DNA of 38,984 bases from an uncultured Bacilli bacterium (GTDB lineage: Bacteria > Bacillota_I > Bacilli_A > RF39 > UBA660). A program made the position numbers and the translations under genes. Location: the NCBI GenBank assembly GCA_949440065.1, contig CASRZP010000002.1, forward strand, positions 1-38,984, given 5' to 3'. The notes below the pieces were generated by a model that was not told where the DNA came from, searched no databases, and saw only the letters and a list, made by a program, of their open reading frames with translations. This document shows positions 5,372 to 29,584 of this stretch, piece after piece (the stretch's first letter is position 1; every line of letters begins with the position of its first letter).

Positions 5372-5416
5372 ATGAAAATTAACCAAATGAAAACTAGGGG
5401 GGGGGGTAACTTATAA
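5372..5416 (+). promoter_or_regulatory. Leader mini-ORF (MKINQMKTRGGGNL) containing a G10 homopolymer at 5397-5406, upstream of an exported-protein gene
   Basis: RBS AAGGAAG 7 nt before ATG 5372. The core AACTAGGGGGGGGGGTA is identical to the one at 11035-11051. A weak AAGAA/TTCTT hairpin plus T-run follows at 5445-5465. Confidence 0.45.
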
Positions 5417-5545
5417 AGTAGTACCCTTTCATATCAAGGATGAGAAGAAATTCCCATTCTTTTTATTGCTCTAAAAATAAAAAGTTTAAAAAGTGATGTA
5501 GATAAGAAAAACTATCGACAATAATGATAATAAGGAGTGATAAAA

Positions 5546-6784
5546 TTGAATAGGAAAAAGATAATTTTAATCATACTAATAGGAATTATGATATCAGGAA
5601 TAACACTAATGTATTCATCGTACACATTGTTTTCAGCAAATCAAATCAATAAGTCAGCAATTACTATTAAAGTAGGAACCATGAATGGAAAGATAGATGG
5701 TATAATAACAAATAAATTAACTCTAGAAAAAGGAAAGAAACAAACTTTTGTCGTGACTTTAGAAAACTTGAATGCCATTGAAGGAAAGTTTTTACCTTAT
5801 TATATAGGAATTATCCCTGATGAGGTAACTTTTGGATACTTAGAAGCAACAGGAGTAGATATACCTATTGAAACTAATCTTACTAAAAATGGTAAGAAAA
5901 CGTATTCTATTTATTTAGAGAATAATTCAAATTCAAGTATTACCATTAACTTAGGAGTACAAGGAGGATTAGTGAGTCAACCTTTATCCTTACCTACGAA
6001 TACACATATGATACCTCAATCAGTAGGAGAAAATAAAAATATATCTAACATTTGGAAGTATGATCAAAGATCAGGGTCAAGTACTTTCTGTGTAACGGGA
6101 GAAGAGTCCACATGCCTACCTATTAACCCAGATACCTTTGAACCAGGTACCATTATCAAATATAAAGTCAATGATACTACTGAGAAGTATTTTCATGTGA
6201 TGTTTGATAACGGGGATACCCTAACTTTACAACAAAGAGAAAATACGATATATCAAACGGCACGGTATAAAGAAAGTAATGATAATACACAAGGACCAAC
6301 AACTATTTTACGAGTGTTAGAAAATGCCCCAGCAAATTGGATGAATGTAAATAATCAGACATATACACTAGGCTTAACAATATTTAAAGATAACGCTTTT
6401 ACTGGATGTACATATGATGAAATAACTGATAAGTTTACATGTGTTACAAATATCTATACTATGGGAGAAAGAACAGGAAAATCACGAATGATTACTGTAC
6501 AAGAGGCTCATGCATTAGGATGTTTAGGGTTTGAAAGTGATAGATCAACAACTGGAACATGTCCTATATGGATGTATAATTATTTATATAATTCTAAATT
6601 ATACGGAGGAACAGTAAGCCAAAGAGGAGAAGAATTCGGAAGCGATTATGGTTATTGGACGATGAATGCATATATATCTGATTCAACTAGAGCTTATTGT
6701 GTATACGACACTGGGCGTATAGGAAATCAACCTACGAGTGTTAGTAGCGAAGGTGGTAGAGCTGTTATTATGATTAAAAAATAA
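5546..6784 (+). CDS. Exported protein with a TasA/SipW-type N-terminal signal-anchor and a Cys-containing C-terminal domain; function unknown
   Basis: TTG 5546 sits 8 nt after AAGGAG, whereas the track's GTG 5537 overlaps the RBS. N-terminus is MNRKKIILIILIGIMISGITLMYSSYTLFSAN. The C-terminal GYWTMNA...V.D.G.I.......GGRAVIMI pattern is seen in Firmicute surface-protein C-terminal domains. Confidence 0.6.
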   Translation: MNRKKIILIILIGIMISGITLMYSSYTLFSANQINKSAITIKVGTMNGKIDGIITNKLTLEKGKKQTFVVTLENLNAIEGKFLPYYIGIIPDEVTFGYLEATGVDIPIETNLTKNGKKTYSIYLENNSNSSITINLGVQGGLVSQPLSLPTNTHMIPQSVGENKNISNIWKYDQRSGSSTFCVTGEESTCLPINPDTFEPGTIIKYKVNDTTEKYFHVMFDNGDTLTLQQRENTIYQTARYKESNDNTQGPTTILRVLENAPANWMNVNNQTYTLGLTIFKDNAFTGCTYDEITDKFTCVTNIYTMGERTGKSRMITVQEAHALGCLGFESDRSTTGTCPIWMYNYLYNSKLYGGTVSQRGEEFGSDYGYWTMNAYISDSTRAYCVYDTGRIGNQPTSVSSEGGRAVIMIKK

Positions 6785-6840: not shown

Positions 6841-7058
6841 AACAACAAAGCAGAAGTTGAGGAGTATGATTATTTCTTTTACTAGAGAGTCCATGGTTGG
6901 TGGAAATGGATGAAAGAGTAATTTGAAGGTAGCAACGGAGTGGTTTATTGAAATTCTTAGTAGATAAACACGTTTTCTCGCGTTAAGAGGGTAAAGATAC
7001 AAACTAAGGTGGTACCACGAATTTTGTTTCGTCCTTATGATTTGTGTCTTTTTATTTC
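6841..7058 (+). promoter_or_regulatory. T-box riboswitch leader; candidate specifier GUA (Val) at 6929-6931
   Basis: AGTA (5' S-turn), AGAGAG bay, GGTGGAA distal loop, specifier-loop GAAGGTAG at 6925-6932, and T-box sequence AGGTGGTACCACGA at 7007-7020. Terminator helix AAAGATACAAA (6994-7004) pairs with TTTGTGTCTTT (7041-7051), followed by a T-run. Confidence 0.85.
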
Positions 7059-7080
7059 AAAAAGAAAGGATTTGGTATAT

Positions 7081-9504
7081 ATGTTAGATAAAAAATATAA
7101 TGCAATAGAAAAAGAAGCAAAGTGGTTAAATTATTGGAAGGAAAATAAAATATATCAATTTAAGCCTGATCATCGTGAGGTGTTTTCGATTGATACGCCA
7201 CCTCCAACGGTAAATGGAAAAATTCATATAGGACATATTTTTTCCTATTCCCAAACAGAGATGATAGCAAGATACAAAAGACTATCAGGATATAATATTT
7301 TCTATCCCTTTGGTTTTGATGATAATGGCTTGCCAAGTGAACGATTAGTTGAAAAAGAACAAGGAAAAAGAGCACATGAGATAGGAAGAGAAGCTTTTTC
7401 TAAGTTGTGTTATGAAACAACCGATAAGTATGAAAAAGAATTTGAAGAGCTATTTAGTAAAATGGGAGTTAGTACCGATTGGGATATTCATTATAAAACC
7501 GTTAGCCCATCTACGATTAAAATTAGTCAAACCTCCTTTTTAGAGCTAGCAGAAAAAGGACATTGCTATCATAAAGAAAGTCCTGCTCTATGGTGTAATG
7601 AGTGTTTAACATCGATTGCACAAGCCGAGTTAGAAACAAAAACGATCAAAACAACGTTTAATTATGTTCACTTTAAAACCGTTGAAGATAACGAAGAGTT
7701 TACGATTGCTACAACACGTCCAGAGTTATTACCAGCGATTGTGTGTGTGTTTGTTAACCCAGATGATGATAAGCATAACCATTTAATTGGAAAACACGCC
7801 CATATTCCAGTTGTTGATGTTATAGTTCCTATTATGGGTGATGAAAAAGTTGCCATTGATAAAGGAACAGGTGTAGTTATGTGCTGTACCTTTGGAGATC
7901 AAACCGATATTGAATGGTGGAAGAAGTATAATTTGCCATTAAAATATATTTTTACAGAGCAAGGAAGAATTATTGATTCTGTTCCTAACTACGGTGGATT
8001 AAAGATTAAAGAAGCACGAGCAAAAATTATTGAAGACTTAACCAATGGTGGATTTGTTGAAAAAATTGAAGAGTTAGAACATGAAGTACAAACCCATGAG
8101 CGATGTGGAAGAGAAGTAGAATATGCTGTGATGAAACAATGGTTTATTGATATCATGAATCATAAAGACGACTTCTTAAAAATAGGAAACGAGATTAAGT
8201 GGCATCCAGAGTATATGAAAGCTCGTTATGATGAATGGGTAAATAATATTGCGTGGGATTGGTGTATTTCAAGACAACGTTACTTTGGTGTACCTTTTCC
8301 TGTATGGTATTGTAAGTCCTGTGGTGAACCAATTTTCGCGAAAATAGAAGATTTACCTGTTAACCCTTTAGTAGATAAGCCTCCTGTTACTAAATGTTCC
8401 TGTGGTTGTAGTGAGTTCATCGGTGAAACGGATGTTATGGATACTTGGGCAACATCATCGATTACGCCATTAATTAATATGCGATATAAGGAAAAAGATA
8501 ATTTTGAACAGTACTTAAAGCCAATGAGTTTAAGAACAAACGCTAGTGAAATTATTCGTACTTGGGATTTTTATACGATTGTTAAGAGTTTTTATCACTT
8601 TAATGAACGACCTTGGGATAATGTGATGATTTCAGGATTTGTTATGGCAAGTAAGGGTGAAAAAATTAGTAAAAGTAAGGGAAACAGTAAAGTGGAACCT
8701 CTTGCGTTAATCGAACAATATTCAGCTGATGTGATTCGCTACTGGGCAGCATCTGGTAGATTAGGTACAGATATTGTTTATAGTGAAGAAACCCTTTTAC
8801 GTGGACGAAAACTAGTCAATAAAATCTTTAATGTAGCGAAGTTCATTGAAATGCACTTAGAAGACTATCAAGATAAGGAAGTTGAACACTATGAATATCT
8901 TGATCGATGGATTATGGGAAAATATCAAGAAATGGAAGAAGGATTCTTAAAATATTTAGAAGATTATGAAATTGGGCTAGCTTTAAATCATTTAGAAAAG
9001 TTCTTCTGGAATTTCTGTGATAATTATATTGAAATTGTTAAACATCGCCTGTATCGACCAGAGGAGTTTGGAAATAGTGCAAGATACTCTGGACAAAAGA
9101 CAGTCTACACCCTTTTATATAAATTGCTACAAGACTTTAGTATTTTCTTTCCCTTTATTACTGAGGAGATTTACCAAGAGATATATCACCATGAAAAGTC
9201 AATTCACTTAACCACCATTACTCCGTTAACTTTTGATTTTAAAAAGGAAGTAGTAAATGGGGATATTATTGTCGATATCATTAGCCAAGCACGTGGTGAG
9301 AAGACTAACCATAATGTGTCATTAAAAACACCAATTGAATTAATGGAGTTAAGTGTAACCAGTGATGTAGCTAAGGCAATAAATGCATCCATCAAAGACT
9401 TTAGTGCAACTTTATTTATCAAAGATTTAAAAGTTGGTGTTGTTGATGATTTAATAAAAATAGAAAATATTGTCCTAGAATTAGAAGATAAGGAAGAAAA
9501 ATAG
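7081..9504 (+). CDS. valS: Class I aminoacyl-tRNA synthetase, most likely short (archaeal-type) valine--tRNA ligase
   Basis: IDTPPPTVNGKIHIGH (HIGH motif), KISKSKGN (KMSKS motif), WCISRQRYFGVPFPVW, and Zn-knuckle CxxC motifs. ATG 7081 lies after AAGAAAGGA and downstream of the T-box terminator, while the track's start at 7009 lies inside the leader. Valine is assigned from the N-terminal pattern plus the GUA specifier reading. Confidence 0.65.
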   Translation: MLDKKYNAIEKEAKWLNYWKENKIYQFKPDHREVFSIDTPPPTVNGKIHIGHIFSYSQTEMIARYKRLSGYNIFYPFGFDDNGLPSERLVEKEQGKRAHEIGREAFSKLCYETTDKYEKEFEELFSKMGVSTDWDIHYKTVSPSTIKISQTSFLELAEKGHCYHKESPALWCNECLTSIAQAELETKTIKTTFNYVHFKTVEDNEEFTIATTRPELLPAIVCVFVNPDDDKHNHLIGKHAHIPVVDVIVPIMGDEKVAIDKGTGVVMCCTFGDQTDIEWWKKYNLPLKYIFTEQGRIIDSVPNYGGLKIKEARAKIIEDLTNGGFVEKIEELEHEVQTHERCGREVEYAVMKQWFIDIMNHKDDFLKIGNEIKWHPEYMKARYDEWVNNIAWDWCISRQRYFGVPFPVWYCKSCGEPIFAKIEDLPVNPLVDKPPVTKCSCGCSEFIGETDVMDTWATSSITPLINMRYKEKDNFEQYLKPMSLRTNASEIIRTWDFYTIVKSFYHFNERPWDNVMISGFVMASKGEKISKSKGNSKVEPLALIEQYSADVIRYWAASGRLGTDIVYSEETLLRGRKLVNKIFNVAKFIEMHLEDYQDKEVEHYEYLDRWIMGKYQEMEEGFLKYLEDYEIGLALNHLEKFFWNFCDNYIEIVKHRLYRPEEFGNSARYSGQKTVYTLLYKLLQDFSIFFPFITEEIYQEIYHHEKSIHLTTITPLTFDFKKEVVNGDIIVDIISQARGEKTNHNVSLKTPIELMELSVTSDVAKAINASIKDFSATLFIKDLKVGVVDDLIKIENIVLELEDKEEK

Positions 9505-10918: not shown

Positions 10919-10947
10919 TTGAAAAGAAATAACAAATTTGATATGAT
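10919..10947 (+). promoter_or_regulatory. Sigma-A-type promoter driving the G10 leader and the LRR-protein gene
   Basis: TTGAAA (10919-10924), 17-nt spacer, TATGAT (10942-10947). Confidence 0.6.
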
Positions 10948-10975
10948 TATTTTATGATAAAGGTAGGTGTTAAAA

Positions 10976-11059
10976 ATGAGAAAATTAAATGATATAAATT
11001 TTTCTTCTAACACCACTTTTGTTAACCCTAGATTAACTAGGGGGGGGGGTAGACCTTAA
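10976..11059 (+). promoter_or_regulatory. Leader mini-ORF (MRKLNDINFSSNTTFVNPRLTRGGGRP) containing a G10 homopolymer at 11040-11049
   Basis: RBS AAGGTAGG before ATG 10976. The G10 tract is read as AGG GGG GGG GGT. CCCTAG-attaa-CTAGGG hairpin at 11026-11042. The core AACTAGGGGGGGGGGTA is the same as at 5392-5408. Confidence 0.5.
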
Positions 11060-11083
11060 AATAAAATTAAATCATAAGAACCA

Positions 11084-11114
11084 AAAGAACGTGAAGAAAT
11101 TTACGTTCTTTTTC
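11084..11114 (+). terminator. Intrinsic terminator / attenuator between the leader mini-ORF and the LRR-protein gene
   Basis: AGAACGT-gaagaaattt-ACGTTCT hairpin followed by TTTTT. Only about 26 nt separate it from ATG 11140, which leaves no room for an independent promoter. Confidence 0.65.
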
Positions 11115-11139
11115 GTGGTTCAAAGAAAGGAAAAAGAAA

Positions 11140-12738
11140 ATGAAATCAAGAAAAAAACTTATTTTATCTAGTGCACTTTTATTCGTGTTAGTACTAGTAA
11201 CCATAGGAGTAACTTATGCAGTGTTTACTTTTAGTAGAGAAGGTGCCATTGAAAATACTTTGGAAACAGGAACAGTCACTTTAACGTATACCGAAGGAAA
11301 AACAGGAATTACCTTAAATGAAGCATACCCAATTTCAGATGATGCTGGTAAAGTTTTAACGGGAGTTAATCATGTGTTTGACTTTACTGTTCAAGCCAAT
11401 TTATCGAAATCCATGTCTATTAATTACGAAGTTACAGCAGTTAAGATTCCTATTACTGATATGACATCTTTAGAAGATAATGAAGTAAAACTATATTTAG
11501 AACGAGCCATAGATCCAGAAGTAGAATACCAAGAAGTTTTAGCACCTAGTAATTTTATACCAAGGGAAGAACAAAGTAGTCTAGGATCACCTTCAGGTTC
11601 GATGATATTAGATCAAGGATCATTCACCAATCAAGGAACAACAATACATAACTATCGTCTACGTATGTGGATAGCAGATGATGCTGTTATTCCTAGTGGT
11701 GAATCAAGAAAATATGGAGTAAGGGTCAATGTTTATGCTAGTCAATCAGGAGTAAAGATGGATGAGAGTTGTTTTACCTTTGATGATACTACAGGAACCA
11801 TTATAGGATATTCTGATAACTGTTCAAAAGATGTAGTCATTCCTAATCAAATTAATGGAGTAGAAGTTGTAGCTATTGGTGATCGCTCTCTTAGAGAAAA
11901 AGGATTAACATCAGTAAATATTTCTAATACTGTAAAATCTATAGGCCGATCATCTTTTTCGGAAAATTTATTGAGCGAAATAGAAATTCCTGAAGGTGTA
12001 AAGGAAATTGGAGATTTTGCCTTTATGGATAATCGATTAACTAAACTTACTATTCCTAGTAGTGTAACAAAAATAGGAAAGAACCCTTTTAATAATAACC
12101 AATTATCTGATGAAGATGCCTTTATTTACAAAAGAGATGAATTTGGAAACATTGACTATACCACTATTATCAGTTACGGTGGGGCACGACGAGATAATGT
12201 TGTTATCCCTAGTGGAGTAACAACAATTGCTACAAAAGCTTTTGATGGAAATAAGCTAACAAGCGTTATCTTGCCAGAGGGTTTACTTACTATAGGAAGT
12301 GATGCCTTTCATAACAATCTACTTACTTCTATTACTATACCAAGTAGTGTAACTAGTATTGGTATAGCATCTTTTAATGATAATCAATTAAGTGATAACG
12401 AAGCTTTTATTTATCAAAGAAACGAAGATGGAAGTATTGATTATACAACGATTGTTAGTTACGGAGGAAAAAATAGAGATATTGTGACTATTCCTGATCA
12501 GGTTAAGACTATACGATATTATGCACTAGCTTATAATTCATTAAAACAGGTAATTATACCAAGTGGTGTTACCACTATCCAATCAGACGCCTTATTAAGC
12601 AATCAATTAACTAAGATTATCAATAAAACAGGAAAAAGTTTTAACTGGGGTACGATAACAGGTGGAACAACAACGTCAACATTTGTAACAGGAACTATAC
12701 CGCATAAAAATGGTGATATTATTGTAACTAGCGAATAA
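11140..12738 (+). CDS. Exported surface protein: TasA/SipW-type signal peptide, TasA/camelysin-like N-terminal beta domain, and BspA-type leucine-rich repeats
   Basis: N-terminus is MKSRKKLILSSALLFVLVLVTIGVTYAVFTFS...TGTVTLT, a SipW-cognate-like motif. NYRLRMWIADD...YGVRVNVYA follows. BspA-like LRR units (VVIP..I.G..V..IG..AF....LTS..IP.SV..IG) span about aa 207-495. Confidence 0.75.
   Translation: MKSRKKLILSSALLFVLVLVTIGVTYAVFTFSREGAIENTLETGTVTLTYTEGKTGITLNEAYPISDDAGKVLTGVNHVFDFTVQANLSKSMSINYEVTAVKIPITDMTSLEDNEVKLYLERAIDPEVEYQEVLAPSNFIPREEQSSLGSPSGSMILDQGSFTNQGTTIHNYRLRMWIADDAVIPSGESRKYGVRVNVYASQSGVKMDESCFTFDDTTGTIIGYSDNCSKDVVIPNQINGVEVVAIGDRSLREKGLTSVNISNTVKSIGRSSFSENLLSEIEIPEGVKEIGDFAFMDNRLTKLTIPSSVTKIGKNPFNNNQLSDEDAFIYKRDEFGNIDYTTIISYGGARRDNVVIPSGVTTIATKAFDGNKLTSVILPEGLLTIGSDAFHNNLLTSITIPSSVTSIGIASFNDNQLSDNEAFIYQRNEDGSIDYTTIVSYGGKNRDIVTIPDQVKTIRYYALAYNSLKQVIIPSGVTTIQSDALLSNQLTKIINKTGKSFNWGTITGGTTTSTFVTGTIPHKNGDIIVTSE
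12049..12618 (+). repeat. Internal tandem duplication (about 285 nt / 95 aa per unit) inside the LRR gene
   Basis: TIPSSVTKIGKNPFNNNQLSDEDAFIYKRDEFGNIDYTTIISYGGARRDNVVIPSGVTTI compares with TIPSSVTSIGIASFNDNQLSDNEAFIYQRNEDGSIDYTTIVSYGGKNRDIVTIPDQVKTI. Confidence 0.7.
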
Positions 12739-12758
12739 GAACATTCTTGTTCTTTTTT
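12737..12758 (+). terminator. Rho-independent terminator
   Basis: AAGAACA-ttct-TGTTCTT hairpin followed by TTTT. Confidence 0.7.
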
Positions 12759-12874
12759 CGTAAAAATGGAAAAATAAAAATAGAAATGAAATTTCTTCAT
12801 TTTTTCTTTCCAAATTCTTAAAATTGTGTTAGAATATTAGCTCATACAGCACATTATCGTTAGGAGTTGGAAGT

Positions 12875-14590
12875 ATGGCGATTATTGATTTAAAAGAAGG
12901 CAATAAACCATTTATTTGTAATAAGTGTGGTTCTTTAATTCTAAAAATAAATGATGATGAGGAAGCTTTATTAGAACGCTTTAAAAAAGAAGATATGGTC
13001 AATGAGACAATACGTTTTACTTATGCTGAGAAGGAACCTGGAGACTCTTGGGGACTAGCTACTAGAAATAGACGAATTGAATTAGAAAACAAATATCGTA
13101 ACCTTCTATTTAATGGCATTATCAATAAAGACTTTTCTGTAAACGAAGAACAATTAAACGTAAGTTATCAAAGCGGAAATTTACTTCTATATAACTATAA
13201 CATTGAAGTACCTTATGCCTTTACCTTAAACAAGGGAAAAATTGAAAGTCTATCCATCAAATTTATAAAAGAAGAGAATATTGATTGTCCGATATGTCAT
13301 GGAACACTAATTGAATCAGAGGATTACATTAATACCGTAAAATGTAAGAATTATTTTGAAAAAGATGATGCTTATATCGTAGCTAACAATTTCAATAATT
13401 TTTACGATATGTATAGTAAAGAAAAAAGTGATGAGAGTTTTTCCCATCAAGAGGTCAATGCAAAAGATTTATTATTTAATTTAATTCATGTGAATAAACA
13501 CATTCAAGTTTTAGAAGAAGAAGTAAAAGTGTTAATGAAAAAACAAAGACCTGTAGGGCGCCTTTTACAAAGAACGATTTCTTTATTTCGCAAAAACGTT
13601 GAAGAATGGGTAATTAAATTAACGGATTTAGATGATAATCAAGAAAAAGATAACTTTTTAGATGAACATCAAATTACTAAAGTTTCACTAAAAGATTGTC
13701 CTGTTGCTCCTATAGCACCTAAGGTTCCTGAGCGACCAGTGCTACCTGAAGAGTTAGTATTAGAAAAAGTGAGCTTCTTTAACAAAAAGAAAATTATAGA
13801 AAAAAATCAACAACTATTAAAAGACTATAATACCAAAAAACTACAGTACGCTGATGCTTTAACCGAGTATGAAATTAGCTTACGTGAATATGAAAGTGCT
13901 AAGAAAGTTTACGAAGAACAAATGGTACAATACAACATCCAAAAAGAAGCTTTTGATTTAAAATATAGTGAGTATGCTAGACAAGTAAGTGAGTTAATTA
14001 CTGCTAAGATTGATGGACTAATGAAGCTCTTAACCGTGGAAGCAGAACTTAATAAAGAACAGTTAGAAGAAGTCATGGAAAAATATGAAATTCCCGTGGA
14101 GTACAAAATGGATTATTACCAAGTAAAAGAACAATTTGATTTCTATCAAAATACGATTGAAGAGATGAAAGAAAAGTTAATAGAATTATATAAAACAAGA
14201 AATGATTTACTTAGCTTAGATGTTATCTATCCAAAATATAGCGATTTAATTTCTTTAACTACCATGTATGAATACTTTGTCACAGGAAGAGTAAATACCC
14301 TAACTGGAGTAGCTGGAGCATATCGTTTATATGAAAGTGAAAGTGGTGATAAAACCATTAATACTAAGTGGGATGACATTGTAAACGAGTTAGATAAAAT
14401 TAAAGAAAATCAATTCCTTTTATATAACGTCATTTGTGATATTAGAAATGCTTGGGTATCTTTCCATCTAACCGATGAAGAAATTAATCAAGAAGTAGTC
14501 GTTAAATTTAACGAAGCAAAAGAAGAATACTACAATAAATTAATGGCTGACTGCACGAGCGCTAACACTTTTCTATCTGCTTTAGCCTAA
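12875..14590 (+). CDS. Hypothetical 571-aa cytoplasmic protein with CxxC pairs and a long coiled-coil region
   Basis: RBS TAGGAG before the ATG, with an extended -10 TGtTAGAAT upstream. CNKC (aa 15-18) and CPIC (about aa 137-140). Pro-rich linker PVAPIAPKVPERPVLPEE. K/E-rich heptad-like segment at about aa 300-440. No TM segment and no recognisable enzymatic motif. Confidence 0.6.
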   Translation: MAIIDLKEGNKPFICNKCGSLILKINDDEEALLERFKKEDMVNETIRFTYAEKEPGDSWGLATRNRRIELENKYRNLLFNGIINKDFSVNEEQLNVSYQSGNLLLYNYNIEVPYAFTLNKGKIESLSIKFIKEENIDCPICHGTLIESEDYINTVKCKNYFEKDDAYIVANNFNNFYDMYSKEKSDESFSHQEVNAKDLLFNLIHVNKHIQVLEEEVKVLMKKQRPVGRLLQRTISLFRKNVEEWVIKLTDLDDNQEKDNFLDEHQITKVSLKDCPVAPIAPKVPERPVLPEELVLEKVSFFNKKKIIEKNQQLLKDYNTKKLQYADALTEYEISLREYESAKKVYEEQMVQYNIQKEAFDLKYSEYARQVSELITAKIDGLMKLLTVEAELNKEQLEEVMEKYEIPVEYKMDYYQVKEQFDFYQNTIEEMKEKLIELYKTRNDLLSLDVIYPKYSDLISLTTMYEYFVTGRVNTLTGVAGAYRLYESESGDKTINTKWDDIVNELDKIKENQFLLYNVICDIRNAWVSFHLTDEEINQEVVVKFNEAKEEYYNKLMADCTSANTFLSALA

Positions 14591-19711: not shown

Positions 19712-19918
19712 ATGGGTAGGAGTATTTTAACCAGTAGAGAAAAAGAAGTGTTTGATTATTTAATTATGAATAAGTCCACCAAAGAAATTGCCATTTTACT
19801 TGGAATTAGTGAAAAAACAGTTAGAAATCATATTTCTAATGCCATGCAAAAACTAGGGGTTAAAGGAAGAGCGTGTGCAGTAATTGAGTTATTAAAATTA
19901 AAAGAAATTTCTCTTTAA
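19712..19918 (+). CDS. gerE: GerE, LuxR-type HTH sporulation transcription regulator
   Basis: LTSREKEVFDYLIMNKSTKEIAILLGISEKTVRNHISNAMQKLGVKGRACAVIELL closely parallels B. subtilis GerE (EKTVRNHISNAMQKLGVKGRSQAVVELL). 68 aa, RBS AAAGGAGGAG. Confidence 0.9.
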   Translation: MGRSILTSREKEVFDYLIMNKSTKEIAILLGISEKTVRNHISNAMQKLGVKGRACAVIELLKLKEISL

Positions 19919-20954: not shown

Positions 20955-21031
20955 GTCCCCGTAGCTCAGTTGGATAGAGCAATCCCCTTCTAAGGGATCG
21001 GTCAAGCGTTCGAATCGCTTCGGAGACACCA
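20955..21031 (+). tRNA. tRNA-Arg (anticodon UCU)
   Basis: Cloverleaf: acceptor GTCCCCG/CGGAGAC (one C-A mismatch at 4:69), D-arm GCTC-AGTTGGATA-GAGC, anticodon arm ATCCC-CTTCTAA-GGGAT, T-arm AAGCG-TTCGAAT-CGCTT, discriminator A, encoded CCA. Confidence 0.95.
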
Positions 21032-23577: not shown

Positions 23578-23753
23578 CTTATCACCCAATTTTATTTTAG
23601 TACATGACTTATGTAAGTTTTATAATTTGTCAAGTGATACGATTAATATGTGCAAATTTTTGAATTTTATGTAAAAAATTCGTATTTTTTTTTTACTTTT
23701 TTAGTAATTTTAAATTTACTTTCCAATGATGATATTGGGAGGTGAAAAGATGT

Positions 23754-25850
23754 GTGGCACATCTAGAATTTATTTCACAACTAGATAAAAAAGATTGTGG
23801 AATCACTTGTTTGTTAATGATTTTAAAATATTACGGTGGAGAAGCAAGTAGAGAGTATTTACGTTTACTCGCTCATCAAGATCAGTATGGTGTCAATGCT
23901 TTTTATTTAATTGATGCGGCAAATCATCTCGGTTTAGAAGGAAAAGGCATAACAGGTCCCTTAGAAGAAATGCCTTGTTCCTTTCTTCCTTGTATTGCTC
24001 ATGTTCATTTGAATGGATATGAACACTTTGTTGTTATTGAAAAAATTAACCATAAGAGTCAATATGTATATATTGTTGACCCTGCTAGAGGAAAACTAAA
24101 ATATAGTTTTAAGGAGTATCAAAAAATTTCAACTAATCAATATTTATGCTTTCGTCCAAAGGTAGCAAAACTGCCTGTGTTAAAAGAAGAAAAAAGGTTC
24201 TCACGTTTTTGTTTAAACTTTTTTGCTAGACAGTGGTATTTGATATTAGTAATTTTGTTTTGCATACTCCTAGCGTTTCTTTTAGAATTAATAGTAACGT
24301 ATCATTTTCAATGGATATTAGATTATGGTATAGCGTATCAAAAGAAAGCACTTCTTAGTTTTTTTCTTACCTTTGTCATTTTATTGATTATTTTTATTCG
24401 TGTCATTTACTTAATGAAAGAATATTTTATGAATCATCTTTTACAAAAATTTCAGCTTTTTATTAGTGAAAAGGTGATACACCACATCTTACACCTTCCC
24501 TTTCAATACCAACAGTATCATACAGCAGGAGAACTCATTTCTAAGTTTTCTTTTCTAGAGGATGTTCTTTATATTTGGTATCCTATAATGAATGGGATAA
24601 GTAGTAGTATTATTTTAGTTATCTTACTTATTTTATTAGGAAGAATACATCATTACTTTTTTTCTATTTTTCTTTTATTTATGATAGTTCAATTATTTAC
24701 AACAAAACTAGAAATTCCTATAGTTAGTAAGATGTTAAAAAAAACGAAGATGGAATTAACCTTATTAAATTCTAAGTTAACCGAATGTTTCTATGGATTG
24801 GGAACCATTAAGAATATGCATATAGAAGAAGATACCTTTGAAAAGTTAGATGTTTACTTAGGAAATTATTTAACCAAGGCAAAAAAGTTAAAAATGCGAC
24901 TAAAATTAATAGAAGAAGAAAAAAGTTTTATTCGTTTATTCATGGAACATTTGCTATTAACATTTGGAGGGTTTTTGCTACTACAACAAAAAATTACTTT
25001 ATCGCATTGGTTAATGGTATCTTTTTTATCCCGTCTAGCTATTAGTCAATGTGAGGTTCTATTGGATTTTCCTTCAAGGTGGGAAAATAGTAAAACTTCT
25101 TTTCAACAGTTAAATGACCTTCTTTCTATAGAAATAGAAGATTTTACTTTTGGTCTATCTACACTTCCTCTTTGTTTAAAAGGAAAAATACAATTGAACA
25201 AGTTTTCATTTTTCATTAGGAAAGATAAAGGATTATTTTATGATGTATCGTTAACTATCGATGAAGGAGATCGTATTGCTTTATTAGGATCATCAGGAAG
25301 TGGGAAGAGTACTTTATTAAAAATATTGATGCGTTATTATGAAGTTGCTCATCAAATGATTTATTTAGATAATCGTGATATTTTATCATATCCATTAGAA
25401 ATGATTAGAGAAAATATTTGTTATGTATCACAAGATGAAATGCTTTTTTCAGATACGGTATATCAAAATATTATGTTAAATCAAAAAATAGATTATGATG
25501 AATTTTTAATGATATGTAAAATTACTGAGGTAGATAGCATTGTATCTAGTAGTTTATTAGGATATCAATATAAAATAGAAGAAAATGGAATCAATCTATC
25601 TGGGGGAGAAAGACAAAGAATTATTTTAGCAAGAGCACTAGCGAAGAAGTCATGTATATATTTATTTGATGAATCTTTTAATCAATTAGATATTCATAGA
25701 GAAAGGAGAATCATGAAAGCGATTTTTAATTATTTAGAAGGAAAAACTATATTTGTTGTGTCGCACCGAAAAAACAACTTGGACCTATTTACACGAAGAT
25801 TGGTGTTAGATGATAAAAATATTATAGATGATTACTTATATTTCCATTGA
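23754..25850 (+). CDS. Bacteriocin ABC exporter with an N-terminal C39 peptidase domain (double-glycine leader processing)
   Basis: C39 motifs QLDKKDCGITCLLMILKYYGG and YEHFVVIEKI. TM domain present. Walker A GSSGSGKST, signature LSGGERQR, Walker B IYLFDES. GTG 23754 sits 9 nt after GGGAGGTG. Confidence 0.9.
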   Translation: MAHLEFISQLDKKDCGITCLLMILKYYGGEASREYLRLLAHQDQYGVNAFYLIDAANHLGLEGKGITGPLEEMPCSFLPCIAHVHLNGYEHFVVIEKINHKSQYVYIVDPARGKLKYSFKEYQKISTNQYLCFRPKVAKLPVLKEEKRFSRFCLNFFARQWYLILVILFCILLAFLLELIVTYHFQWILDYGIAYQKKALLSFFLTFVILLIIFIRVIYLMKEYFMNHLLQKFQLFISEKVIHHILHLPFQYQQYHTAGELISKFSFLEDVLYIWYPIMNGISSSIILVILLILLGRIHHYFFSIFLLFMIVQLFTTKLEIPIVSKMLKKTKMELTLLNSKLTECFYGLGTIKNMHIEEDTFEKLDVYLGNYLTKAKKLKMRLKLIEEEKSFIRLFMEHLLLTFGGFLLLQQKITLSHWLMVSFLSRLAISQCEVLLDFPSRWENSKTSFQQLNDLLSIEIEDFTFGLSTLPLCLKGKIQLNKFSFFIRKDKGLFYDVSLTIDEGDRIALLGSSGSGKSTLLKILMRYYEVAHQMIYLDNRDILSYPLEMIRENICYVSQDEMLFSDTVYQNIMLNQKIDYDEFLMICKITEVDSIVSSSLLGYQYKIEENGINLSGGERQRIILARALAKKSCIYLFDESFNQLDIHRERRIMKAIFNYLEGKTIFVVSHRKNNLDLFTRRLVLDDKNIIDDYLYFH

Positions 25851-26247
25851 TACTTGGAAAAAAAGAATAGAAAATCGTTTTTTCCTTCATTTCATTTCTC
25901 TCATGGTGTTATTGCTCATTCTTCTTGGTTTATTATTTTACTATTTAATGACGAAAGAGGTTTTGTTAACGAAATCAATTTCTGTTACTTCACTAGAGTC
26001 AGGATATTATCAGCTTCATGTTGATAATTTGGAATTAGCAAAATTAATGAATCAAGTTACTTTGTTAGATAAAGGGCAAGAAATTTCTTATCGCATTTTA
26101 AACGTTGTATTAACAGATGATAAAGAAAAACCACAGCAAGTAACAATATCTACTGTAAAAAAAATAGGAAATCAAACGGAAATGGTATTGATAAGAAAAA
26201 AATTATTGATGGTATTGATTGATAGTATAAAAGGAGGAACAACATGA
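25828..26247 (+). CDS. Short (139 aa) single-TM protein resembling the N-terminus of ComB/LcnD-type bacteriocin secretion accessory proteins
   Basis: Overlaps the ABC gene end by 23 nt and the first bacteriocin gene start (ATGA). W..R..NRFF.HFISLMVLLLILLGLLFYYLMTKEVLL resembles the accessory-protein N-terminal anchor, but the large periplasmic domain is missing. Confidence 0.5.
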   Translation: MITYISIDTWKKRIENRFFLHFISLMVLLLILLGLLFYYLMTKEVLLTKSISVTSLESGYYQLHVDNLELAKLMNQVTLLDKGQEISYRILNVVLTDDKEKPQQVTISTVKKIGNQTEMVLIRKKLLMVLIDSIKGGTT

Positions 26248-28505: not shown

Positions 28506-28928
28506 ATGAAAAAAATGATTAGAATATTGTTTTTGGTTATTTTAGTATTTGCTGTATTATATGGTGTTTTAGTAATAAAGAGTAATCAAAAATTTGATAA
28601 AGTAGATAATACTTCGATGGAAATTAAAGAAGGTACTTTGACTAGTACTAGTGCTACAATTATTATTACGGATACATCATTAGAGAAATATGAATATGAT
28701 AATGTATTCATGATTTATAAAAAAAAGTTTGGCATATGGACCGCGGTTACAGAAAAAGTAAAATGGGTGAGTTCACCAGGTTATTATGTAGATGCTAATG
28801 GTAAGTTAGAAATGGAATGTGATTTTCACAAAAAAAAGTTAGATAAGGGTTTGTATAGATTGTCAAAATGGGGTTATTTAGCAGACGGAACAGCTAAAAA
28901 TGTTTATGTAGAATTTGAAATAAAATAA
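28506..28928 (+). CDS. Small TM-anchored/exported beta-rich protein, paralog 2
   Basis: RBS AAAGGAGA. Residues about 10-105 are identical to paralog 3. The C-terminal ~35 aa diverge (DFHKKKLDKG...GYLADGTAKNV versus NFPKQKLGKG...AYLKDGTVKNI). Confidence 0.75.
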   Translation: MKKMIRILFLVILVFAVLYGVLVIKSNQKFDKVDNTSMEIKEGTLTSTSATIIITDTSLEKYEYDNVFMIYKKKFGIWTAVTEKVKWVSSPGYYVDANGKLEMECDFHKKKLDKGLYRLSKWGYLADGTAKNVYVEFEIK

Positions 28929-28950
28929 AGTATCTTATATTTTATCATTG

Positions 28951-28977
28951 CTAAAGAAAATAATCTTTAGTTTTTTT
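28951..28977 (+). terminator. Rho-independent terminator
   Basis: CTAAAGA-aaataa-TCTTTAG hairpin followed by T7. Confidence 0.75.
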
Positions 28978-29161
28978 ATGTCATTTACGTCAATTTTAAA
29001 TTTTACGATTTTTTTCGTCAAAATAATTGATGATAGTCAAATATTATGATATATTAATTTTAAGTTAACCATCTAAAAAAACAACATAAAAATAAGGCTT
29101 TACAGTAATGTGTATGACCTACTGATAATTCCCAAGTGAAAGGGAAAAAAGGAGACTTAAA

Positions 29162-29584
29162 ATGAAAAAAAATATTAAAATATTATTTTTGGTTATTTTA
29201 GTATTTGCTGTATTATATGGTGTTTTAGTAATAAAGAGTAATCAAAAATTTGATAAAGTAGATAATACTTCGATGGAAATTAAAGAAGGTACTTTGACTA
29301 GTACTAGTGCTACAATTATTATTACGGATACATCATTAGAGAAATATGAATATGATAATGTATTCATGATTTATAAAAAAAAGTTTGGCATATGGACCGC
29401 GGTTACAGAAAAAGTAAAATGGGTAAGTTCACCAGGTTATTATGTAGATGCTAATGGTAAGTTAGAAATGGAATGCAACTTTCCTAAACAAAAATTGGGT
29501 AAGGGGTTGTATAGGTTATCAAAATGGGCGTATTTAAAAGATGGAACAGTTAAAAATATTTATGTAGAATTTGAAATCAAGTAA
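29162..29584 (+). CDS. Small TM-anchored/exported beta-rich protein, paralog 3
   Basis: See paralog 2. RBS AAAGGAGA. Confidence 0.75.
   Translation: MKKNIKILFLVILVFAVLYGVLVIKSNQKFDKVDNTSMEIKEGTLTSTSATIIITDTSLEKYEYDNVFMIYKKKFGIWTAVTEKVKWVSSPGYYVDANGKLEMECNFPKQKLGKGLYRLSKWAYLKDGTVKNIYVEFEIK

Follow-up and report, generated by a model that had tools for sequence, protein, structure and literature searches.

We analyzed a window of 38,984 nucleotides (nt), namely positions 1 to 38,984 on the forward strand of contig CASRZP010000002.1 (assembly GCA_949440065.1) from an uncultured Bacilli bacterium, and focused on a leader module which precedes a gene for a BspA-type leucine-rich repeat (LRR) protein. 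The module consists of a promoter (P1), a short open reading frame (ORF), called here the mini-ORF, which runs across a tract of ten G's (G10), a terminator-like hairpin with a run of uridines (U-run), and the ribosome-binding site (RBS) of the LRR gene (Table 1). A first description made from the letters only (the sequence-only reading) had listed the promoter, the mini-ORF, the G10 tract, the hairpin, the RBS and the ATG, and we found each of them where it had been placed. Two things had been overlooked: a promoter-like pair of hexamers which encloses the tract, and the fact that the module belongs to a multi-copy family, with a second member in the same window.

Table 1. Features of the two leader modules of the window and of the genes behind them (positions are those of the window)
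Feature	Position	Strand	Remarks
Promoter P1, extended -10 type	TTGAAA 10919-10924, 17-nt spacer, (TG)A-TATGAT 10942-10947	+	Score 10/12, with TG
Shine-Dalgarno region of the mini-ORF, AAGGTAGGTG	10960-10969	+	6 nt before ATG 10976
Mini-ORF MRKLNDINFSSNTTFVNPRLTRGGGRP	10976-11059	+	27 codons and TAA in the G10 allele; homologous to the mini-ORFs of L047 and L055
Local hairpin CCCUAG-AUUAA-CUAGGG	11026-11042	+	Predicted; pairs the first G's of the tract; equivalent pairing in L047 and L055
Promoter-like TTAACT-18-TAAAAT enclosing the tract	11033-11062	+	Scan score 9/12
G10 homopolymer, the variable element	11040-11049	+	Read AGG GGG GGG GG
Early stops of the two short (proposed OFF) frames	11050-11059	+	TAG 11050-11052 (G11); TAA 11057-11059 (G10)
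Terminator-like hairpin	11078-11121	+	Inner stem 11084-11111; U-run 11109-11113; outer arms GAACCA/UGGUUC
Extension of the mini-ORF in the G9/G12 frame	11091-11171	+	Spans both hairpin arms, the U-run and the LRR RBS and ATG; ends at TAG 11169-11171
RBS (AAGGA) and ATG (11140) of the LRR gene	11127-11142	+	26 nt from U-run to ATG; 30 nt from hairpin 3' end
Proposed controlled gene, BspA-type LRR_5 protein, 532 amino acids	11140-12738	+	E = 6e-41; N-terminal signal or anchor ..TIGVTYAVFTFS..
Second mini-ORF, MKINQMKTRGGGNL	5372-5416	+	G10 at 5397-5406
Hairpin of the second module, AAGGAUG..CAUUCUU and U-run	5436-5466	+	Weak, -7.1 kcal/mol; the G9/G12 frame passes through to TAA 5472-5474
Gene behind the second module, exported protein, 412 amino acids	5546-6784	+	Without known domain; N-terminus ..LMYSSYTLFSAN..

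From its position, P1 is expected to start transcription near 10954. Taken alone, this promoter match is not significant in the window, which holds 29 promoter-like sites vs 35 in shuffles. For runs of eight or more G's, shuffling of this 30% G+C window gave an expectation of 0.14, whereas the window has two G10 tracts. For the hairpin, the folding energy is -20.6 kcal/mol (z = -5.7); none of 200 shuffles was as stable. The frame bookkeeping of the sequence-only reading was right: with G10 the mini-ORF ends at a TAA 7 nt past the tract, with G11 at a TAG adjacent to it, and with G9 or G12 it continues to the TAG at 11169-11171. The dependence of the LRR gene on read-through also agrees with our analysis, as a consensus scan finds no promoter-like site fitting the gap between 11114 and 11140, which leaves no room for another promoter. 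As to the codons of the tract, AGG and GGG were correctly called rare (1.9 and 4.3 per 1000 here), and because of this slow decoding on the tract is possible; for the stalling component that had been proposed in addition, codon rarity is the one fact that speaks in its favor. No Rfam family reaches its gathering score in the leader, the best permissive match being ncr1015 with 22 bits vs the 60 needed (E = 0.63).

The module is not confined to this site. At least 16 complete modules, falling into about 8 diverged subfamilies, were found in related metagenome contigs and in metagenome-assembled genomes (MAGs) of Bacilli, "Tenericutes" and Clostridiales; loci outside the window are cited below by L numbers. 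Exact-protein look-ups, made for neighboring genes too, located the same LRR gene in metagenome contigs of JGI. The same samples also yielded LRR paralogs of about 50% identity, and modules stand upstream of those at L007:2823 (G11), L007:4867 (AAG6), L003:7269 (G9) and L192-L195 (G9 or G10). Two further paralogs, at L003:3001 and L196, lack the module and stand behind a plain promoter. Look-ups of the 75-amino-acid upstream ORF and of P0004 gave no exact-protein matches, and the look-up of VanY led back to the two contigs already found and to none new.

A genome-wide search for AACTAG tracts, which the sequence-only reading had proposed, was made with one genome per species and the pattern AACTAG8+..TAWAAW. 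It returned 57 loci, about 20 of them clearly the same module. Copies number 4-7 per MAG: CALVHX01 (Bacilli) carries seven, many of them at contig ends, and CAOKBR01 (Tenericutes) four. Further hosts are CAJMAC01 and CAAGKK01 (Clostridiales/Clostridia), and the module also occurs at L044, L049 and L055. Six near-identical copies in CALVHX01 (L021, L025, L026, L027, L036 and L064; G8-G10) lie about 30-80 nt from contig ends; module copies thus crowd the ends of contigs, so the leader is a multi-copy repeat that breaks assembly. When metagenomes were scanned with TYAACTAG8, only L103, L111, L154 and L173 belonged to the family among the matches listed, none of them from the samples of the window, and the other matches listed were mostly poly-G-rich junk from samples Ga0179591 and Ga0179593. 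Module tracts are present in independent assemblies of JGI, ENA and NCBI.

All complete modules share the same parts in the same order: a Shine-Dalgarno sequence and ATG, a mini-ORF across the tract, two early stops, a third frame leading to a hairpin with a U-run, and the gene of an exported protein. In 10 of 18 cases, vs 0.11 expected from shuffles, the ATG of the mini-ORF has an extended -10 promoter (TTGnnn-17-TGnTAnnnT) 13-61 nt ahead of it. A strong Shine-Dalgarno sequence (AAGGAAGGTGA or GGAGG) precedes the start in most members, L007:4841 being a weak exception. The mini-ORF always enters the tract as ACT AGG GGG, its peptide reading ..[IV]-N-x-x-[LS]-T-R-G-G; the homologs closest to the mini-ORF of the LRR site end in ..LVNPRLTRGG (L047) and ..FVPSRLTRGG (L055). 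In every one of the 16 complete modules, two frames end within 20 nt past the tract and the third heads to the hairpin, the short frames ending at least 15 nt before it. Depending on the module, the stop of the long frame falls within the hairpin, just ahead of it (L023) or past its end. Neither the promoter nor the frame pattern is significant at a single site; both become so only across the family.

Two short motifs flank the tract and are conserved. The first, TTAACTAG, stands just before it and puts a TAA and a TAG in the two other frames (for instance at 11033-11040 of the window). The second, a TTATAAAATAA-like motif after the tract, gives a stop to two of the frames and looks like a -10 element as well. 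The tract itself may pair with nearby sequences. In three subfamilies (L025, L028, L044, L049, L103 and L173) the spacer between the Shine-Dalgarno sequence and the ATG is rich in C and U (CUCUCUCU, CCUCCUC or CCCC); folding predicts that this spacer base-pairs with 5-8 of the tract's G's and so encloses the mini-ORF in a stem. At the LRR site, L047 and L055, the predicted partner of the tract is instead a nearby CCCUAG or CCUUCUAG. In some subfamilies, pairing of the tract with the C/U-rich spacer could mean that initiation is open only to the first ribosome loading while the leader is being transcribed.

All 16 modules have, 29-96 nt past the tract, a hairpin with a U-run directly behind it; the folding z scores range from -0.8 to -5.1. 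The stems differ in sequence (GAACGU/ACGUUC, GGAUG/CAUUC, GAAUAG/CUAUUC, ACAGGAU/AUCUUGU and the long GACUAUGAAA../..UUUCAUAGUU). To compare them, six members were aligned in register and scored against an explicit structure; L047 is one column off in this alignment, which lowers the counts. Stem pairing was found in 91% of the cells, vs 44-67% when the partner columns were slid. Four stem pairs change on both sides, a number reached by 1 of 500 shuffles, so the hairpin covaries. RNAalifold gave no consensus for eight hairpin regions, in which differing loop lengths shift the alignment.

Past the U-run, the start codon of the next gene follows after 18-44 nt in L014, L103, L173, L049 and L055. 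Where the gap is longer (64-100 nt), the consensus scan, the only method used here, found no good promoter match. Judged from sequence, the structural gene is without a promoter of its own in at least six modules. The downstream ORFs, 18 of 18 inspected, begin with a lysine-rich hydrophobic N-terminus, mostly followed by T[YF]AxF[TS], and many are LRR_5 proteins. A resemblance of these N-termini to signal peptides of the SipW/TasA type was not confirmed, an NCBIfam search of the downstream proteins being without such a match. No frame fuses the mini-ORF to the downstream ORF in any of the 16 complete modules, and the arrangement is therefore not that of an intragenic frameshift switch. The intragenic type is represented only by L045 (minus strand, oriented position about 5997) and L034:1023, where G11 and G12 tracts lie inside the leaders of prepilin-type genes, e.g. 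MIKVTNSKLGGGGHKNQGFTLIELL... Because the sequence before the tract of L045 resembles the mini-ORFs, the module may descend from a pilin leader or have been captured by one.

The sequence-only reading took the tract to be variable, and its length does vary. Lengths differ between samples at three of four loci, the flanks being otherwise identical; the source samples at JGI are 3300006131, 3300006133, 3300006147, 3300006201 and 3300006217. At the LRR locus we find G10 in the window and in L002, and G11 in L001; L002 has three base differences beside the tract which resemble read errors. At the locus of the second module the tract is G10 in the window, L187 and L189, G11 in L190, and G12 in L191, which is a poor contig end, while L188 carries a 35-nt deletion which removes the tract together with 25 flanking bases. 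The P0011 locus has G9 in L192, L193 and L195 and G10 in L194. L003 and L006 are both G9, and the G9 mini-ORF of L003 passes through the hairpin and ends 4 nt before the start of the next gene. The three variants without a mutable tract (G6 in L007:4867 and in L197, tract deleted in L188) are all in read-through frames, as would be expected from selection if the long frame is the ON state. States are mixed within a MAG: CAOKBR01 has one long-frame and three short-frame loci, and the copies in bin89 are three and three. All these lengths are consensus lengths of metagenome assemblies and not error-corrected reads, and poly-G is error-prone; annotated lengths of G-tracts are to be treated with caution (PMC9187656).

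The family anatomy (16/16), the covariation of the stem, the lack of room for a promoter, the variation of the tract and the locked variants all support the attenuator that the sequence-only reading had put forward, and we estimate at roughly 60% the probability that the site is a phase-variable, translation-dependent transcription attenuator. In the mechanism which we propose, P1 would start a leader RNA with a well-initiated mini-ORF holding the slippage-prone G-tract. With G10 or G11, the ribosome would stop 0-7 nt past the tract and at least 18 nt short of the hairpin, its leading edge remaining at least a few nt short of the 5' arm. The hairpin and U-run (11078-11121) would then form behind RNA polymerase and the transcript would end 26 nt before the LRR start, an OFF state reached in two of the three frames. 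With G9 or G12, the ribosome would trail the polymerase into both arms of the hairpin, the terminator would be blocked and the surface gene transcribed (ON); the stop of the long frame would set the ribosome on or past the 5' arm, against a polymerase transcribing the U-run. Translation across the RBS of the LRR gene may add coupling. Slipped-strand mispairing at replication would alter the tract length, and the state would be heritable and reversible. Termination at the hairpin, coupling of ribosome and polymerase and ON/OFF expression are what this geometry would predict.

Features of two kinds of system come together at the site. As in contingency loci, there is an unexpected slippable homopolymer, its length varies between the same flanks, and it is associated with a surface gene. 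As in attenuators of the pyrBI and pyrE type, a promoter and a leader ORF with its RBS precede a predicted terminator, and the gene shows no promoter of its own. That the whole is a dedicated modular frame-sensing switch, in which the G-tract sets three ribosome stops, one of them overriding a terminator, and which has been copied before many exported-protein genes, is a wider claim to which we would give about even odds.

Several observations weigh against the attenuator. The frame pattern has a null probability of 0.22-0.5 per site, because AT-rich DNA is full of stops; at the LRR site it is 0.22, which is not improbable alone. Multiplying the largest value of each of the 8 subfamilies gives 8e-4, a figure that is optimistic since it overstates the independence of members related by descent. 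The conservation of ..N-x-x-L/S-T-R-G-G and of TTAACTAG is not accounted for by ribosome position alone. Hairpins of the second-module type have little stability (-7 kcal/mol, z about -1). The hairpin of the LRR site was not called by the terminator scan of the window, because the extension of its stem uses part of the T-run, and its outer stem pairs beyond the U-run, which is atypical for a terminator. Base errors adjoin poly-G at L002:1895-1910 and L191:1611-1663 (e.g. ACACCAC read as ACCCCCC), a pattern typical of misread poly-G. In Bacillus subtilis, RNA polymerase runs ahead of the ribosomes, so that attenuation by ribosomes is harder to achieve in Firmicutes; the group nevertheless has leader-peptide attenuators (e.g. 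bmrCD, vmlR and lmo0919). Finally, in the closest subfamily a 17-nt spacing of the promoter-like hexamers coincides with the tract length of the ON frame.

Other explanations were weighed against the same data. An unlikely one keeps a frame-dependent switch and does without intrinsic termination: the ribosome would stabilize the mRNA, open the RBS or couple translation, or relieve factor-dependent polarity, the hairpin being an element of stability or processing. At the LRR site the long frame does cross the RBS and ATG of the gene, the long frame of L003 ends very close to the next start codon, and the outer stem makes the hairpin an atypical terminator; G-tracts of Bifidobacterium breve pilus genes act partly by diffuse polarity (PMC9187656). 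However, most long frames stop inside the hairpin, 30-100 nt before the start of the gene, and translational coupling therefore cannot be general. The downstream RBS is not sequestered in the predicted folds, and all members keep a U-run right after the stem, which points to termination.

It is quite unlikely that the tract acts as the spacer of a promoter, setting the distance from TTAACT (11033-11038) to TAAAAT (11057-11062), with an ON state at 17 nt (G9) and weak states at 18-19 nt (G10 and G11). This pair of hexamers scores 9/12 in its 18-nt form, its spacing is 16-18 nt throughout the closest subfamily (both window sites, L003, L007:2823, L013, L014, L023, L047 and L192), and a CTTATAAAATAA-like motif is kept after the tract. 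In this subfamily the 17-nt state is also the long frame, so that its members cannot separate promoter spacing from attenuation. Across subfamilies, TTAACT lies anywhere from 12 to 24 nt from the closest -10-like hexamer, with the frame architecture kept, which means that the spacing is not conserved. At the second module the -35 element would be AAAACT, with 2/6 matches. The -10-like motif of the MAG matches is partly forced, as TAWAAW was required by the search pattern, and TTATAAAATAA has another reason for being conserved in that it gives stops in exactly two frames. Moreover, a transcript from near 11069 would include all of the hairpin and the U-run, and no ribosome would be there to keep it from terminating; in the locked G6 variants, intact genes of 547 and 564 amino acids would stand behind dead 14-nt spacers; and the conserved upstream promoter, Shine-Dalgarno sequence and ATG would be left without a role. 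Taken together, these data suggest that the spacing of a promoter is not what controls the gene.

The same genome scan did return genuine TTGACA-AACTAGn-TATAAT cases in other phyla, which is a point in favor of spacer variation. There, AACTA-G(8-13) lies between TTGACA-like and TATAAT-like hexamers (L012, L018/L053, L024, L029, L032, L038, L050 and L057), in hosts belonging to Treponemataceae, Anaerolineales (G8 vs G10 in two MAGs), Parcubacteria, Oscillospiraceae, Lachnospiraceae and Bacteroidaceae. The AACTA after the -35 element is partly forced by the search pattern in these cases, which look like spacer homopolymers of the classical promoter kind.

We consider it very improbable that the mini-ORF is a separate phase-variable small gene with the hairpin as its own terminator, or a relic of a prepilin leader, without control of the LRR gene. 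Gene callers annotate long-frame versions as genes of 31 and 54 amino acids, a similar tract stands in the leaders of the real prepilin-type genes L045 and L034, and the long-frame peptides share K-K-F-x-F-F-like ends. These ends, however, are what an A-rich 5' arm and a U-rich 3' arm encode; the C-termini are otherwise not conserved, ending variously inside or beyond the hairpin. A coding sequence over both arms of its own terminator would be unusual, and the lack of a promoter of its own for the downstream gene in at least six members also speaks against a separate gene. Least credible is the absence of any regulation, the tract being a neutral hypermutable remnant in a duplicated leader and its length differences errors of assembly or sequencing: poly-G is error-prone on Illumina, errors do stand beside the tracts of L002 and L191 and the caution voiced for such lengths applies (PMC9187656), but tracts of G8-G13 are retained at one position even where the flanks of the modules have diverged too far to be aligned, in genomes of 26-33% G+C for which runs of this kind are not expected, are tied to one class of exported-protein genes and are carried by all the independent JGI, ENA and NCBI assemblies.

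The surroundings of the two modules were also inspected. The organism of the window is a spore-former, as seen from the neighboring genes for SirA, CotF, YqfD and SpoVA. The LRR gene has its own terminator at about 12740-12760, and no module was found upstream of the next gene in the window, at 12875. A match at 19851 (AACTAGGGGT) was rejected as a module, since it sits within a small gene of the LuxR/GerE type. Alleles of the gene behind the second module (5546-6784) differ strongly between samples. The homologs in L187 and L189 differ by an A4/A5 run that shifts the frame and by an insertion or deletion of 144 nt, and that in L188 is strongly diverged from about 470 nt onward, which suggests replacement of the allele. 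An ordinary T-box leader (6844-7039, 119.5 bits) stands before a gene for a class I aminoacyl-tRNA synthetase (7009-9504), and there is a tRNA gene at 20955-21028. Elsewhere in the window (23742-26247 and 28506-29584), several ORFs of some 140-150 amino acids, two of them exactly 140 long, come after a peptide-cleavage/export ABC transporter of the bacteriocin type; this region may be a bacteriocin or secreted-peptide locus.

If the attenuator is real, a repeat in a non-fused leader ORF that decides whether a terminator is overridden would be a third route of phase variation, beside frameshifts within genes and the spacing of promoters, and the module would be the first repeat-programmed leader-peptide attenuator. 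With several modules in one genome, each placed ahead of its own exported-protein gene, a combinatorial heritable repertoire of surface proteins would arise in hosts (uncultured gut Bacilli, genomes labeled "Tenericutes" and Clostridiales) for which almost nothing is known on surface variation. It would also be evidence that tight coupling of transcription and translation is exploited in this lineage of Firmicutes, and the G9, G10 and G11 alleles would offer a simple genetic handle on this coupling. The signature is recognizable (Shine-Dalgarno sequence and ATG, ..TTAACTAG(n), early stops, hairpin and U-run); it could serve to annotate variable surface genes in metagenomes and could let the ON and OFF states be read directly from the sequence.

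Among known systems, the closest in logic are pyrBI and pyrE of Escherichia coli, where translation of a leader ORF prevents formation of a terminator and where, in the case of pyrE, the rph-1 frameshift cuts translation short and so lowers expression. As in these operons, the leader ORF of the module would be translated toward an intrinsic terminator, a ribosome at the hairpin would block termination and an early stop would raise it, so that rph-1 is a fixed, one-off counterpart of the proposed OFF state. The input of pyrBI and pyrE is physiological, through pausing that depends on uridine triphosphate, whereas here the heritable and reversible length of a homopolymer would be the input; the module is also multi-copy, stands before surface-protein genes and resides in a low-G+C, spore-forming host of the Bacilli class. 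In bmrCD and vmlR of B. subtilis and in lmo0919 of Listeria, a promoter, a short leader ORF and a terminator are likewise found, and the position of the ribosome decides on read-through. These attenuators use alternative RNA structures and drug-induced stalling; unlike the module, they have no mutable repeat and their state is not heritable.

Heritable switching by other means is known as well. In cwpV and flgB of Clostridioides difficile, a recombinase inverts DNA and thereby creates or removes a terminator in the leader. The likeness lies in a heritable ON/OFF state that early termination in the 5' leader imposes on a Firmicute cell-surface gene, and the difference in the use of site-specific inversion, with no ORF, ribosome or repeat tract involved. 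Homopolymers vary in promoter spacers or 5' untranslated regions of Bordetella fim (poly-C), Neisseria porA and opc, Mycoplasma hyorhinis vlp (poly-A), Treponema pallidum tpr (poly-G) and Moraxella catarrhalis uspA1 (poly-G). These tracts resemble ours in standing before surface-protein genes, in multi-gene families, and in varying by slipped-strand mispairing. They act on polymerase binding or in untranslated RNA, whereas here the tract lies inside a conserved translated mini-ORF and the spacing of the hexamers is not conserved.

The nearest published case is found in the sortase-dependent pilus clusters of B. breve, where an intragenic G-tract joins a signal-peptide ORF to the pilin ORF and acts by diffuse polarity with no defined terminator (PMC9187656). 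Both systems have a G10-G12 tract after a short first ORF and occur in gut commensals, and the module would share with that of B. breve the slippage and the target, surface adhesion. In B. breve slippage decides whether translation continues, and out-of-frame alleles lose downstream transcription (PMC9187656). In contrast to that switch, the present module has no fusing frame, its gene has its own RBS and signal sequence, and a discrete hairpin with a U-run lies in between. The sequence-only reading knew of no such poly-G leader-peptide switch, and our full-text literature searches likewise turned up no case in which a leader ORF with a repeat tract is coupled to a terminator. The module would thus combine two known kinds of system, contingency loci and ribosome-mediated attenuation, and would neither belong to an already named family nor establish a principle new in kind.

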